Part shown: positions 13,302-21,151 of the stretch, in pieces
Layout: each line of letters opens with the position of its first letter
Position numbering within the stretch: the first letter of the stretch is position 1
Source: Ideonella sp.
GTDB lineage: Bacteria; Pseudomonadota; Gammaproteobacteria; Burkholderiales; Burkholderiaceae_C
Assembly (NCBI GenBank): GCA_016702655.1
Contig: JADJDO010000001.1
Coordinates: 489,316 to 521,315 of the forward strand
Length of the DNA stretch: 32,000 nt
Direction: 5' to 3'
Program-made: the position numbers and the translations under genes
The notes under the pieces: model-generated
What the model was told of the DNA's origin: nothing
Seen by the model: only the letters and a program-made list of their open reading frames with translations
Databases searched by the model: none

Positions 13302-13314
13302 TCCAGAACTGCCA
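13302..13314. repeat. attL-side copy of the 13-bp direct repeat TCCAGAACTGCCA
   Basis: Identical 13-mer at 21112-21124. On the minus strand it encodes WQFW of the oxoprolinase N-terminus. Confidence 0.85.
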
Positions 13315-13682
13315 TTTATTGGCTGAAAGGCTTATATTATTTGACATTTCTGTGTTTACACGGTGTTGACACAGCAGAATCCTGTGTACATCAGAAACGC
13401 ACACCTGCGTTGGAATTGACAAGCCATTGACACGAACAGGCGTCGCAACACGGCAGCTACACTTCTGCCGAGCGCATCTGAGCAGCACAGCGCAAGTGGT
13501 CCAATCCAACCCCACGGGTCACGCCATCGGGACTCTCAATGGTGCCATGTATCGTCATCAGCGAGCGCAGCCCCGTAGTGTCATGCCCACCTCGCTAATC
13601 ATCTGATGCCCACGTGCCTGGACACAGCACCGGACTCGGCCACCATGGATGGCCAATTTGACGTAGCTCAAGAGGAGCGTCC

Positions 13683-14066
13683 GTGGAAATCGTTGTTGGA
13701 ATCGTCGTAGTCGTCGTACCGTTTATCGTCATTGGCAAGCTGAAGGGCGCACCCGAACCCACGACGATGTCGGACGCAGCCATCTTTCAACGCCTGCAAA
13801 CCGAAACGCCTGGATTTCAAAGTACCTGAGCCAGCCACTGGCAAGTCAACAGAGTGAGTCTCTGAAGCGGACGTACAACGAAAAGACGGAGTACATCAAG
13901 AGCCTCAAGATGCAGCTTGTGCAGCGCCAGATGGCGCAAGGAACGCATGCTGTAGATGCAGAATTGGCTCCAATCTTGGCCCGCGCTGCTGAACTCGCAA
14001 GGGGCGGCATGTCAGAAGCAAGCTCATGCCTCTGCCCTAAGCGAGTGGAGTGAACGGACCAAGTGA
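13683..14066 (+). CDS. Hypothetical membrane-anchored coiled-coil protein (about 127 aa; interrupted by two compensating 1-nt indels in this sequence)
   Basis: AGAGGAG RBS then GTG at 13683. MEIVVGIVVVVVPFIVIGKLKGAPEPTTMSDAAIFQRLQTE | AWISKYLSQPLASQQSESLKRTYNEKTEYIKSLKMQLVQRQMAQGTHAVDAELAPILARAAELARGGMSE | KQAHASALSEWSERTK. Frame changes at the A-run 13804-13806 and near 14016. The total span is exactly 384 nt and the stop overlaps the next start as GTGA. Start and reconstruction are inferred. Confidence 0.45.
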
Positions 14067-14541
14067 GAGCGCCTGCACAGCGTTCCGAAGAACAGGCCCA
14101 GTGTTGTTGGGCTTTGGCGAATAGCTATCCTCGAAGCCGCATCGCGTCTGCTCGACACGCACTCTGCCGAGGTATTCCTACCCTCGATGTTCTTGCTCTT
14201 GCACGCACTCGAACTTCATCTCAAAGCCTTCCTCATCTCTCAGGGTATGAGCGATACCCAACTCCGGAGCGTCGGTCACGATCTGCTGGCTTGCCTTCGT
14301 GCATGCAAGGAACGTGGACTGGCTTCACATGTGGCTATCGCATGGGTCGATCTGCTGCAGATCGCCCGCCTGAACGTGTATTACAGGCGGAAGGAACTGG
14401 AGTACTTCGTACCCAAGGCAAAGAACTTCGGCAGCGTTGATCGACTGACTGGAGACTGTTGGTCGGATTGCGAAGGCCGTCTTCAACCCCGTAACTGCAG
14501 AATCCTTCCGCACTGTCCAGGAACGGAACTTAACCCGGTAG
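14063..14541 (+). CDS. Hypothetical all-helical, HEPN-like protein (about 158 aa; two 1-nt insertions in this sequence)
   Basis: VRAPAQRSEEQAQCCWALA | IAILEAASRLLDTHSAEVFLPSMFLLLHALELHLKAFLISQGMSDTQLRSVGHDLLACLRACKERGL...YFVPKAKNFGSVDRLT | ETVGRIAKAVFNPVTAESFRTVQERNLTR. The A.E..LKA.L...G......H.L..L pattern resembles HEPN, but the motif is RSVGH (R-x3-H), not the canonical Rx4-6H. Frame changes near 14120 and 14452. Confidence 0.4.
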
Positions 14542-14558
14542 ACATTGAGGGCCAACAC

Positions 14559-14971
14559 ATGATCGAAGAGAAAGACGTCACCACGACCGCAATTTCCGAT
14601 GTGTTCCGCGCAGCGTTTATGGACGTTCAAGCTACGGATGCAGATAGCTTCAAAGTGAAGGGACTGCAGTTCCCTTTCCAACTGAACGTGCGTGTAGAGC
14701 CGGAGCACAAACTCATTTCCTTCATCGACTTCAACCGCCTGAATCGCATTGGAGAAGCAGATGCGCTTGTTCCCTGCAACGAGGCCAACAAGAACCTTGG
14801 CCCTGCACGCTTCTTTCTCATTCAGCAAACGGATTGCTCGCTGTCACTCACTACCAGATGACGTTTGAAAGAGGCGTCCTTCCATTTCACGTGGTGACGA
14901 GCTTCCGCACATTTGAGTATTGCGCGGGCTCAGCAGTTCGAGGTCTATTTAAGGACTACATCCTTCCCTGA
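14559..14971 (+). CDS. Hypothetical YbjN-like (type III secretion chaperone-like fold) protein (about 137 aa; one 1-nt deletion in this sequence)
   Basis: GAGGG RBS then ATG at 14559. MIEEKDVTTTAISDVFRAAFMDVQATDADSFKVKGLQFPFQLNVRVEPEHKLISFIDFNRLNRIGEADALVPCNEANKNLGPARFFLIQQ | NGLLAVTHYQMTFERGVLPFHVVTSFRTFEY.... Frame change at the A-run 14827-14829. Family assignment is from pattern memory only. Confidence 0.4.
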
Positions 14972-15091
14972 GATCGGGGGCGGCGCATCACGATTCACGC
15001 ACGCAGACCGTCACCGGCAAGCGGCAACGATCCATCGTTGGAACGTCCCCGAAATTCATCAATTTCCTGCACGCCTGCTACCTACGCCAAT

Positions 15092-18867: not shown

Positions 18868-18978
18868 TTTTCAGTTCCTTTCAGTTAATCGACTGCTTGA
18901 TTGCCGTCGATGAAATGAACTGTAGCTTTCCGTTCTCAATCAGTCATGGAACAGCGGCACCTCTGGTTTTGTTCCCGA

Positions 18979-19757
18979 CTACTGAATATCGAGCACGTTC
19001 GACTCAAACGGCCTGTCGTCCGGGAAGCTGGCCTGATGGTGCTGGACGCGAACGCCCTGAAGTCGCGCCTGCACTTGTTCAACATGGCCTGAAGCTGTCC
19101 AGGCGCTGCCTGACAGGCGGCCGGTGCTCTCGAGTTCGGCCCTGGCCTTTGGGTCGAGCGTCCAACCCATGTTGTCGATCTCGTGACGGACGAACGCGGC
19201 CACAGCGTCAACGTGGCGCAGTTCCTCGAACGTCTCGAGGTCGTACCGATAGCTGCGTTCGACGGAGCGCATGCTTGCCGTACCTGCTGCAAGCCGTGCG
19301 CGACCTTGCCACCCGCCTCCCGCAGCGTGTACTTCGGAGGTGGGGCCGGCTGCACATTGCCGGACGTTCGATGCCGTTCCAACAAGTTGGCCACCAACGA
19401 AGCCGCTACGTTCACGTCTCCCAGGAGCGGCACGTCTAGCAGCAAGTACCCGGGCTGTGCCCGTACCTTGAGGTCTGACACGACTCGCGGCGCTGCCATG
19501 AACAGGTGCCGCCGAGGCTCGAACCATTCGCGCCATAGCTCGCTCTGCATACCTGCCTCGGGCCAGGCGTCGAGCGTGCCGAAGTCTTCGTAGATGTCGG
19601 CGACTTTGTCGAACTTCGCCTCAAGCTCTGTGCACATGGCAGCCTCAGCCATGTCCCGCGCCGAGCAGTACAAGGAGTAGTCAATGTTCTGCGTCAGGCA
19701 CTGGTACCAGAGACTGACCCACTTTCGGTCATGGCGCCCTCCCATCCGCCGCTGCAT
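18979..19757 (-). CDS. Hypothetical protein downstream of the integrase (about 260 aa; at least one frame break; C-terminus uncertain)
   Basis: MQRRMGGRHDRKWVSLWYQCLTQNIDYSLYCSARDMAEAAMCTELEAKFDKVADIYEDFGTLDAWPEAGMQSELWREWFEPRRHLFMAAP...GLQQVRQ | SMRSVERSYRYDLETFEELRHVDAVAAFVRHEIDNMGWTLDPKARAELE.... Frame change near 19278. Confidence 0.4.
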
Positions 19758-21029
19758 GCCACGCTCAGCGGTACCTCGTCAAGCTCGTCGGTCATGTCAG
19801 GCGTTGGGACACGGTCGTAGAACCGTTGGATCATTTCCGGGCTTGTACCTGCTGTTCGTGCCAGCCGGTATATATCTACTCCATGCTTGATGCGATGGGA
19901 AATGTAGAAGTGACGCAGCGAGTAGATCGCCAGCTTCTTGCCCATCGAATCCTTTTCAACACCGGCGGCCTTGATCAAGTTGTTGAAACCCTCACGGAAA
20001 TCCTTGATAACGACCCCGTCGGTGTCGCACCAGACGTAGTCGTCATCTGCTGCGTAGTCGTTTCTTGCCCGCGCCGTCGTTCTTTGTAGGGCGCTGATAG
20101 CCATCGCCGCAATGTCAAGCCCAACCGCGACTCGCTTCTTCTTGACCTTGCTGTGTGTCGCTTCGACTGTCACATGCAAGGCCTCTTGCTCGTCGGCCCC
20201 CTGGTGTACTTGATGTCGCGCCAGCGTAGATTGCGCGCTTCACCTGGCGCAGTCCCGTGCCAGCTACGAAGAACACAAACGCGCGCAACATTTCCCGGTA
20301 CCGGGTAAGCCGGGCGTCGTGTCCATGCTGCCGACGCCATGAGTCCACGACTTGCGCCGAGCAAACTGCGCGAGCTTGTCGAGCTGTTCTTCAGTAAACG
20401 CTGAGCGTGCCTGCTTCTTGTCCACGGTGAACTTGAAGGTCAGGGCGTTGCCGCTGTACCGGCCGCGGTCGCTTGCCCACCCGAGAAACTGCTTGAAGGC
20501 CCCAAGCTCCCACTCAATCGTGCGCTGTGACGGACGCTCCTTGGCGTTGCCGTGCACCTTGTCACCCGCTGCTGCCTTGGCCGTCCAGTACCCGTGACGC
20601 CATGCCTCGTACTCTTCGAGGTCTTGCGCCGTCACGTCTTGGATGTTCTTCCGGCCGATGTACTCCTTGAAGTACCGGACGATGGACTTGCGGAAGCTTC
20701 GCAGCATGTGCTCCGAGCGCCGCCGCAGACCCTTCTTCTTCACGCCATCTTCGTACGCCTCGATAAAGGCGTCGATCTCCACACTGACGCTGCCACCTTG
20801 ATGACCCTTGGGTTGCATTCCTCTCTGCCGCCCTGATTTCTATGTATCGTTGCCGAGCGCGGTCGAGTGCAATGCTCTCGTCTGTGGTGTCGAGGTTTCG
20901 GTCACGTAGCTGACCATCGGCCACACGCTTGTTCGTGATCCTGTATCGGGCGTAGTAAACGTCGCCCTTGACCAAGGGCCTCGTATAGACGCTTACGTTA
21001 CCGTCCGCAATGCGCTGTATTGCTGACAA
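19694..21029 (-). pseudogene. int: Tyrosine integrase of the element (about 440 aa), four frame breaks
   Basis: (TTG start) SAIQRIADGNVSVYTRPLVKGDVYYARYRI...RQRYIEIRAAE | QPKGHQGGSVSVEIDAFIEAYEDGVKKKGLRRRSEHMLRSFRKSIVRYFKEYIGRKNIQDVTAQDLEEYEAWR...FARRKSWTHGVGS | HGHDARLTRYREMLRAFVFFVAGTGLR | PGEARNLRWRDIKYT | GADEQEALHVTVEATHSKVKKKRVAVG...KLAIYSLRHFYISHRIKHGVDIYRLARTAGTSPEMIQRFYD. The R, HxxR and Y catalytic signature is present. Frame changes near 20822, 20325, 20247 and at the C5 run 20197-20201. Confidence 0.8.
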
Positions 21030-21111
21030 GGGCTGTTGACAAATTGTTTACACGCAGAAATTATTGCGCTAACTACTTGATTTAAAAAGCAATAATTTAA
21101 CGCTTTGGCAG

Positions 21112-21124
21112 TCCAGAACTGCCA
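21112..21124. repeat. attR-side copy of the 13-bp direct repeat TCCAGAACTGCCA
   Basis: Identical to 13302-13314. Confidence 0.85.
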
Positions 21125-21151
21125 CTGGGTGCCGGTAGGGCTGGAGGGCAT
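21112..21151 (-). pseudogene. Displaced native 5' end (first 13 codons) of the oxoprolinase gene
   Basis: The minus strand from 21151 reads ATG CCC TCC AGC CCT ACC GGC ACC CAG TGG CAG TTC TGG, giving MPSSPTGTQWQFW. It joins in frame across the repeat to IDRGGTFT... at 13301 and downward. Confidence 0.8.

Follow-up and report, generated by a model that had tools for sequence, protein, structure and literature searches.

A relic integrative island at the Trp-Gln-Phe-Trp codons of a 5-oxoprolinase gene and its likely relatives in a modular island family of Burkholderiales

A 7.8-kb element splits the 5' end of a 5-oxoprolinase gene (oplA) in a 32,000-nt stretch of the genome of Ideonella sp. (assembly GCA_016702655.1, contig JADJDO010000001.1, positions 489,316 to 521,315). 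This whole stretch is referred to here as the window and its first letter as position 1. Based on its ends, its gene order and its relatives in other assemblies, the element is very likely a site-specific integrative island of an undescribed modular family in Burkholderiales, whose attachment (att) site on the element (attP) contains a 13-mer, TGGCAGTTCTGGA, that also forms the oplA codons for Trp-Gln-Phe-Trp (WQFW). In the window both the element and the split oplA are pseudogenes, and the copy is a fixed relic that is probably immobile.

The element is bounded by a direct repeat of this 13-mer (TCCAGAACTGCCA, which reads TGGCAGTTCTGGA on the minus strand). An earlier note on this DNA had described the repeat as perfect, and it is exact and unique: the 32 kb contain two copies only, at 13302-13314 at the junction with the oplA body and at 21112-21124 at the integrase-side junction, with no other copy at up to 2 mismatches and no chance match in 100 dinucleotide-preserving shuffles. 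The segment between the copies measures 7,810 bp. The interior had also been called AT-richer than both flanks, which is correct for the left flank (GC content 0.47-0.64 between the repeats against ~0.70), whereas the right flank starts with 3.3 kb (21.1-24.5 kb) that are likewise lowered to 0.60-0.66.

The two junctions divide the start of oplA in a characteristic way. Beyond the integrase-side repeat lies the orphaned native 5' end of the gene (21112-21151, minus strand; 21151->21112 reads MPSSPTGTQWQFW), encoding MPSSPTGTQ-WQFW. At the opposite end, the element itself encodes a substitute start and the leader MSNNISLSANK (13315-13347, minus strand) in frame with WQFWIDRGG, and the minus strand from the ATG at 13347 downward reads MSNNISLSANKWQFWIDRGGTFT.... 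Over 31 nt the substitute leader region matches the native one at 74% identity, which would fit an attP derived from a once-captured copy of the target. All of the closest OplA proteins (120 of 120) start with M-x(2-24)-WQFW[I/V][D/Y]RGGT, in which the leader varies in length and sequence and the first W is preceded by R or K in nearly all cases. Since every one of them has a variable leader followed by WQFW, the N-terminus obtained by deleting one repeat and the interior is typical of the family, as the earlier note had claimed. Two of these database proteins carry leaders of the element type (P0067, MPVNPSLPANK; P0073, MPANPSPPANK), which indicates occupied sites. The target is thus the 5' end of a protein-coding gene at its WQFW codons, and a transfer RNA (tRNA) scan of the window was empty.

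At least seven other assemblies have the same 13-bp core, layout and gene order, together with a related integrase (60-96% identity), at the WQFW codons of their oplA genes. Site-specific insertion at these codons, and the presence of related elements in oxoprolinase genes elsewhere, are therefore borne out by independent assemblies. Both core copies lie on the contig in loci L002 (3437 and 12544), L004/L005 (1323 and 11743), L008 (1838 and 12295) and L038 (11292 and 3094), while a single end is visible in L001/L009 and L024 (integrase side) and in L097 (oplA side). The copy at the oplA-body junction accordingly has its equivalents in L002, L004, L008, L038 and L097, and the integrase-side copy in L001/L009, L002, L004, L008, L024 and L038. 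The orphaned native starts are different in each host (MSTQAPAPSR, MNQETPSNTGRGR, MNAR, MTATKR, MLADHGSAR and MHDTPRR). Wherever the far end can be seen, a substitute leader of the same kind as at ATG 13347 is present, namely MPANPSLPANK in L002, MNTTVISKK in L004, MLSSNNGAK in L008 and MPTMTSPSAKK in L038. From these element-supplied ATGs the reading frames stay open to the contig end over 1042 (L038), 762 (L002), 326 (L004) and 308 codons (L008), and the oplA sequence that follows is still highly similar to free-standing OplA. Open frames and high similarity together argue that oplA stays under selection after insertion in these other hosts.

An uninterrupted site in a relative, which the earlier note had proposed to look for, was found for a sibling element. 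The Polaromonas contig L029 (LysR, D-Glu cyclase, DctPQM, DctP, oplA) is collinear with both flanks of L004 (87% and 90% identity) and is uninterrupted exactly at the core; the N-terminus of its OplA (P0118) reads MNQETPSNTGIGR-WQFWIDRGG. Direct repeats at both junctions and an occupied/empty polymorphism, as seen between L004 and L029, are the features expected of an island. A variation on the site was observed in a Betaproteobacteria assembly (VGVT01000049; L012:9852-9875), where an integrase 46% identical to the oplA type is also located at the oplA WQFW codons. There the junction lies a few codons further in, after ...WQFWIDR (TGGCAATTCTGGATCGACCG), as if this integrase belonged to a related lineage whose core is shifted or longer.

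The tyrosine integrase gene (19694-21029, minus strand) is of the type with an N-terminal arm-binding domain. It had been said to end 83 bp from the right repeat; the distance is right, but that end is the start of the gene (TTG at 21029), which is transcribed leftwards into the element. In the window the gene is split over three frames by at least six frame changes and is not functional. Its stitched protein finds 54 relatives, of which the intact ones measure 388-441 aa and the best is 82% identical (E 2.6e-221), and R260, K294, R371, H372 and Y403 are invariant in the integrase alignment (A1). An integrase with its catalytic residues beside the junction is a further feature of att-bounded islands.

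The att region has the layout of a classical integrase substrate. The integrase-side core together with the adjoining CTGCCA of the element forms TGGCAG-TTCTGGA-CTGCCA, a 6-bp inverted repeat with a 7-bp spacer (6-7-6). In integrase orientation the attP of the window reads AAA-TGGCAG-TTCTGGA-CTGCCA-AAG, with the 6-7-6 layout inside or abutting the 13-bp identity, and strand exchange probably takes place inside the 7-bp TTCTGGA. Seven arm-type repeats with the motif GTGT[C/A]AACA / TTGTCAA[C/T] lie in one common orientation just inside the element ends. Four of them form the distal arm (13348-13440, minus strand; GTGTCAAT, TTGTCAAT, GTGTCAACA and GTGTAAACA), the last two directly upstream of the substitute ATG, and their positions are kept in L002, L004 and L008. 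The other three make up the integrase-side arm (21021-21056, minus strand; GTGTAAACA, TTGTCAACA and TTGTCAGCA), of which the last overlaps the integrase start codon, and are kept in L001, L002, L004, L008 and L024. GTGTMAACA occurs three times in the 32 kb against 0.17 expected, in all cases at the element ends. These repeats are best read as putative arm-type sites. The integrase, whose class has an arm-binding domain and is typical of mobile elements (PMC8138268), is predicted to bind them.

These features suggest the following mechanism. The tyrosine integrase would bind the arm repeats in both arms and the core TGGCAG-TTCTGGA-CTGCCA, and integration would cut oplA off from its native promoter, start codon and variable leader. 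The other end of the element would then supply a new ATG and a leader of 9-11 codons in frame with WQFWIDRGG, so that oplA would stay a full-length frame. Trp, Gln and Phe are each encoded by one or two codons, so that the target DNA would hardly vary from host to host, much as with tRNA genes. The excised form is predicted to carry the attP junction ...AAA-TGGCAGTTCTGGA-CTNNNAAA... and to leave behind a repaired chromosomal site (attB) of the form native leader-TGGCAGTTCTGGATCGACCG. Once excised, the element may replicate as a rolling circle, or be nicked and mobilised by a helper, by means of a small HUH Rep-like protein and the hairpin-rich region beside its gene.

The window copy itself restores nothing. 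The earlier note had described the in-frame substitute start; the gene that follows it is a pseudogene here. Its body (9938-13314, minus strand), a fusion of HyuA and HyuB, does not form an intact single frame, though all three Pfam domains are present (Hydant_A_N 1e-50, Hydantoinase_A 1.5e-36, Hydantoinase_B 2e-129). In tblastn against the intact OplA proteins of L002 and L038, the match passes through frames -3, -2 and -3, loses residues 615-748 and continues in frames -1 and -2, with at least 10 frameshifts and ~134 residues (~400 bp) missing at about 11525. The HyuB part additionally contains a palindromic insert of ~105 bp (11190-11295) that resembles repetitive extragenic palindromes (REP) or miniature inverted-repeat transposable elements. 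It reads GCCCTCACCCCGACCCTCTCCC ... GGGAGAGGGCCGGGGTGAGGGC, has the termini GCCCTCACCCCG...CGGGGTGAGGGC and internal GGGAGAGGG repeats, and breaks Hydantoinase_B between profile positions 107 and 133. Within the element, besides the integrase, one backbone gene (p256) has one disruption and another (p145) two.

Could the window element and oplA instead be intact and active, and the frameshifts be assembly or consensus errors? Several indels do occur in nearby compensating pairs (TFTEHRRPPPDG against TFTDIV.RRPDG in oplA; GQ-LRDRNL against GQRYVTESL in the integrase), a consensus sequence can suffer where strains differ around mobile DNA, and some of the small indels might be sequence errors. 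As an explanation of the whole pattern this is nonetheless improbable. The ~400-bp deletion and the ~105-bp palindromic insert cannot be base-calling noise, which is why these are read as true pseudogenes, and roughly 6 kb of neighbouring genes (histidine kinase, response regulator, CpxP-like, racemase-like, DctPQM) as well as five element genes (~1.8 kb) are without disruption. A flavin-monooxygenase-like gene at about 28300-29560 (minus strand) is likewise broken, with at least four frame switches between intact neighbours; it is the third heavily decayed gene of the window and fits a genome with old pseudogenes. The five undisrupted element genes lie in one block at 15092-18025 (two small open reading frames (ORFs), DUF6641, the Rep-like gene and a short recombinase). 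Uniform decay would predict about five disruptions in this block, where none was observed (P about 0.006); selection, gene conversion or uneven sequence quality are possible reasons.

The Rep-like gene (16429-16872, plus strand) is intact and encodes 147 aa, within a range of 147-167 aa across elements. Its motifs MLTxTF, RxHxHxLxxN and YxxKE are invariant or nearly so in alignments of 13 and 26 sequences and provide motif I, the HUH motif and the catalytic Tyr in YxxK that define the superfamily. Motif I, the HUH motif and a YxxK-type Tyr motif are the three motifs of HUH rolling-circle initiators (PMC5714925). Matches to Pfam REP_ORF2-G2P (PF23343) reach E 2e-4 to 2e-3 (19-22 bits, below the cut-off of 27.8), and a PHROG replication initiator is matched at 5.8e-5. 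The AlphaFold2 model (pLDDT 78) finds porcine circovirus 2 (PCV2) Rep as its best Foldseek match in PDB (E 5e-3, TM score 0.38) and viral Reps in BFVD (E 4e-4, TM score up to 0.57); the best fold matches comprise the Reps of porcine circovirus 2, geminiviruses including wheat dwarf virus, microviruses and many other viruses, together with IS200 TnpA and REP-associated transposases. Only 28 relatives were found in 5.8 billion proteins. The gene suggests rolling-circle replication or mobilisation, and it qualifies the earlier statement that no primase, terminase, capsid or conjugation genes are recognisable: none of these was found, but a small HUH Rep-like gene with a putative role in replication or mobilisation is present.

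Downstream of the Rep-like gene follows a conserved non-coding, hairpin-rich region of ~590 bp (16873-17458, plus strand), defined by an alignment of 13 elements, which also holds the promoter region of the short recombinase. Hairpins fold in every one of the 13 elements (single-sequence folds); in the window, conserved ones lie at 16990-17040 and, as a strong terminator-like hairpin with a T-run, at about 17190-17235. The stem of this terminator-like hairpin has four pairs with compensatory changes. RNAalifold predicted nothing for the block-2 hairpin, where the alignment is out of register, and Rfam at E<=1 gave no match in the window, so that the spacer fits no known RNA family. The spacer may represent a rolling-circle origin (double-strand and single-strand origins) or a mobilisation nick site. 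Alternatively, it could be a structured RNA.

The second recombinase noticed earlier is real and intact (17459-18025, plus strand; 188 aa; PF00589 E 2.6e-27). It consists of a catalytic domain only and is the most conserved backbone protein, 79-91% identical to the copies of L002, L004 and L008, with the full catalytic set R41, K72, H138, R141, H164 and Y173 invariant. It shows partial matches to Xer, is collinear with FimB/E-type invertase models and matches the XerC-like structure 4a8e in PDB (E 4e-17). A role as FimB/FimE-type DNA invertase is not supported, since the domain architecture and weak model matches alone fit it: no flanking inverted-repeat pair and no inverted variants were found, and the spacer is collinear in 13 of 13 elements.

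The DUF6641 protein (15763-16224, minus strand) is also intact (PF20346 E 1.9e-12), is 67-80% identical across elements and matches an unannotated PHROG family (E 1.7e-22); its single-sequence AlphaFold model has a pLDDT of 59. Two conserved small ORFs lie next to it (15092-15552, minus strand), one of ~54 aa at 15388-15552 and one of ~69 aa at 15092-15334, both intact and matched by tblastn and tblastx in L002, L004, L008, L030, L031, L038, L097 and L108. On the integrase side, p145 (18437-18867, minus strand) is split over three frames in tblastn and is a distant paralogue of DUF6641, with a ~60-residue domain in common (hhalign of alignments A7 and A10, probability 78%, E 1.9e-5). The neighbouring p256 (18939-19745, minus strand), frameshifted near 19275 (tblastn frames -1 and -3; alignment A5), had no match in Pfam, PHROG, NCBIfam or PDB. 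Sequence-profile searches of PDB with the Rep-like protein, p256 and p145 returned noise only.

Cargo is located at the far end and is variable between elements. In the window its remnants (13680-14975, plus strand) are collinear with L038 and comprise a membrane protein, a HEPN-like and a YbjN-like gene, the latter two recognised by eye only, in both loci. They are frameshifted and fused, with ORFs 14063-14440 and 14187-14861 overlapping in different frames, whereas their counterparts in L038 are intact ORFs of 127, 160 and 143 aa. Neither Pfam nor PADLOC matched the window cargo, and PADLOC found nothing in the backbone either. Other elements carry a type II methyltransferase with a SmaI-like endonuclease (L004; a type II restriction-modification pair and the only cargo annotated by PADLOC), a methyltransferase-like gene (L008), or methyltransferase, helicase and SMC-like genes (L001).

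The backbone extends beyond oplA. A metagenome scan with the short recombinase yielded 78 loci, among which the order DUF6641, Rep-like gene, ~590-bp spacer, short recombinase, p145, p256 and integrase recurs. The backbone is located at a tRNA-Met(CAT) gene in five of these loci (L030, L031, L033, L039 and L040) and at a tRNA-Phe gene in another (L036). These sister islands are alike in gene order and, at 8-14 kb, in size, and differ in their site: those with both ends on the contig (L031, L036, L040) are bounded by direct repeats of 39-48 nt at tRNA 3' ends, as opposed to the 13-bp core at a protein-coding 5' end. Their integrases are only ~25% identical to the oplA type, and the oplA target goes with the oplA-type integrase rather than with the backbone. 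As the same backbone is found at tRNA genes with other integrases, the integration modules appear to be exchangeable, and the family is best described as a classical island backbone with such modules, the oplA lineage being one of them. The earlier view that the element does not fit an obvious layout can therefore be dropped, as the layout belongs to a recognisable class.

In some ~50 contigs from freshwater lake metagenomes within L030-L107 (e.g. Ga0214921), a recombinase with 50-60% identity to the short one is encoded, frequently together with a relative of DUF6641. No Rep-like gene was detectable in them by tblastn, which would make the pair of short recombinase and DUF6641 more widespread than the Rep-bearing backbone. 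A cultured isolate, Leptothrix discophora (GCA_030705305.1, end of JAUZEE010000001; L108), has the Rep-like gene, DUF6641, the 69-aa ORF and methyltransferase cargo. Its backbone adjoins a glutathione peroxidase gene, which is neither oplA nor a tRNA gene, and this organism could be an experimental host for the island family. The hosts known so far for the oplA type are all metagenome-assembled.

With regard to the class of the element, no type IV secretion, coupling protein or relaxase matches, as expected of an integrative and conjugative element, were found with Pfam, NCBIfam and PHROG in the window, L002, L004 and L008. With its integrase, a putative HUH nicking protein and conserved hairpins beside the gene for it, the element may be an integrative mobilisable element. 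An unlikely alternative is a helper-packaged phage satellite or prophage remnant, similar to phage-inducible chromosomal islands or P4, or to a filamentous-phage satellite with an HUH Rep. The small size (7.8-10.5 kb) with an integrase at one end would suit such an element, as would the viral Reps among the best fold matches, the DUF6641 match to a PHROG family and the lack of detected transfer genes of its own. Capsid, terminase, primase, conjugation and Zot-like genes were, on the other hand, absent by Pfam, PHROGs and NCBIfam from the window element, L002, L004 and L008, apart from one weak small-terminase match (E 2.7e-4) that lies under stronger HNH-endonuclease matches in one cargo protein of L002. 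In addition, a search of 2.9 million IMG/VR contigs gave no relative of the short recombinase or of the Rep-like protein, and for the integrase only relatives with at most 30% identity over most of its length; megablast against 50,697 phage records in GenBank gave nothing. A megablast of the island against the PLSDB plasmids also gave nothing.

The 13-bp repeat could, in principle, be a target-site duplication made by transposase-type insertion through the HUH protein or the short recombinase, rather than an att core. Such proteins are present and the insert is bounded by direct repeats, yet the identical 13-mer occurs at the identical gene position in independent insertions in different hosts, and the repeat differs in length where the same backbone has another integrase (39-48 nt at tRNA genes). 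The arm-type repeats and the 6-7-6 core are classical integrase features, and the target follows the oplA-type integrase and not the backbone. An origin by transposition is thus exceedingly improbable and was rejected.

Several observations weigh against a site-specific island that replaces the start of oplA. No attP-type junction was present among the 116 fetched loci and no excised circle was seen, and no empty site was found for the lineage of the window itself, whose genome is absent from the collections searched; five protein sequences of the window, encoded by four genes and including the short recombinase (two alternative starts), DUF6641 and the response regulator, had no exact match there. 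A Shine-Dalgarno-like motif before the substitute ATG was seen in no element when the sequences were read by eye, and a sigma-70 consensus scan of the window gave no promoter pointing into oplA, so that we can only infer restored oplA expression from the substitute start in other hosts. The Rep assignment rests on motifs, sub-threshold hidden Markov model matches and weak fold matches (TM 0.4-0.57), and the frame disruptions could partly be sequence errors. A second island in tandem is not supported, as a search for degenerate att copies in the low-GC stretch to the right of the element found none.

Perhaps, as a distinctly speculative possibility, the central block of two small ORFs, DUF6641, HUH Rep, hairpin DNA and short recombinase is the engine of the family: a self-contained module for single-stranded DNA replication and recombination that would be bolted onto interchangeable integrases and kept intact by selection in the dead island of the window. 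The short recombinase might in that case act on folded hairpins, like integron integrases and XerCD on CTX-phi.

The proposed integration mode of the island has known counterparts. The lambdoid phage 21 and the e14 element, the textbook case for 3' ends, integrate inside the icd gene of E. coli and supply a replacement gene end. As in the oplA element, a tyrosine integrase acts at conserved codons near a gene end, and attP carries a diverged version of the displaced segment that keeps the reading frame. Phage 21 and e14, however, replace the 3' end and thus the C-terminus, whereas the oplA element is not a phage and replaces the 5' end, so that a start codon, a ribosome-binding region and a promoter must be supplied too. 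SpyCIM1, likewise a small integrase-bearing chromosomal island, is inserted at the 5' end of a protein-coding gene, mutL of Streptococcus pyogenes, whose expression it interrupts; its excision serves as a growth-phase switch. While SpyCIM1 blocks expression, the oplA element brings an in-frame start, and the frame is open in other hosts. The pSAM2-like integrative elements of actinomycetes combine an integrase with a rolling-circle replication Rep. IMESag-rpsI is an integrative mobilisable element whose relaxase is related to rolling-circle Rep proteins (PMC5090054). The oplA element is like IMESag-rpsI and pSAM2 in having an integrase and a putative nicking protein of the Rep/relaxase type, in lacking mating-pore genes and in integrating at a gene end. 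It differs from them by its minimal HUH domain (147-167 aa), by the absence of a detected origin of transfer, coupling protein or FtsK-like Tra, and by the extra recombinase reduced to a catalytic domain. Smyshlyaev et al. (2021) distinguish 'complex' integrases with an arm-binding domain from 'simple' Xer-like recombinases (PMC8138268). The 420-aa integrase with arm repeats on both sides resembles the complex integrases of mobile elements, while the 188-aa protein has an Xer-like catalytic domain. This short protein is without even the core-binding domain of the simple recombinases and is FimB/FimE-like in length.

The proposed mechanism is of a known kind, an integrase-borne island at a conserved gene end that carries the replacement for it. 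What is new is the oplA target, the replacement of the start rather than the end of a gene, and an uncharacterised backbone that includes a minimal HUH protein as well as a truncated recombinase. A literature search found no paper linking oxoprolinase with an att site and none mentioning DUF6641. The WQFW codons of oplA add to the list of conserved integration targets a protein-coding 5' end, where the island must replace the gene start. The integrase/att pair, whose 13-bp core most oplA genes of Burkholderiales contain, could serve as a site-specific tool. A backbone of genes without functional annotation, with integrases swapped between tRNA and protein-gene targets and with restriction-modification cargo, is relevant to the movement of small non-conjugative islands. 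The window copy represents an end state, in which island and target gene decay together and the five central genes are intact.

Two neighbouring regions of the window are of interest in their own right. The 3.3-kb stretch of lower GC content (0.60-0.66) from the orphan oplA start to the histidine kinase (21152-24500) contains no long intact ORF and no further att core copy. It holds debris of toxin-antitoxin genes, namely a DUF6364 antitoxin-like ORF (21370-21651, plus strand) and a TumE toxin (24145-24354, minus strand) with a broken partner, and is possibly what remains of an older island. Just downstream of oplA (8277-9781, minus strand) lies a bufferin-like peptide operon, in which a small secreted Cys-rich protein (~9420-9700) is followed by a 386-aa ORF combining MbnB/TglH/ChrH and DUF2063 domains.

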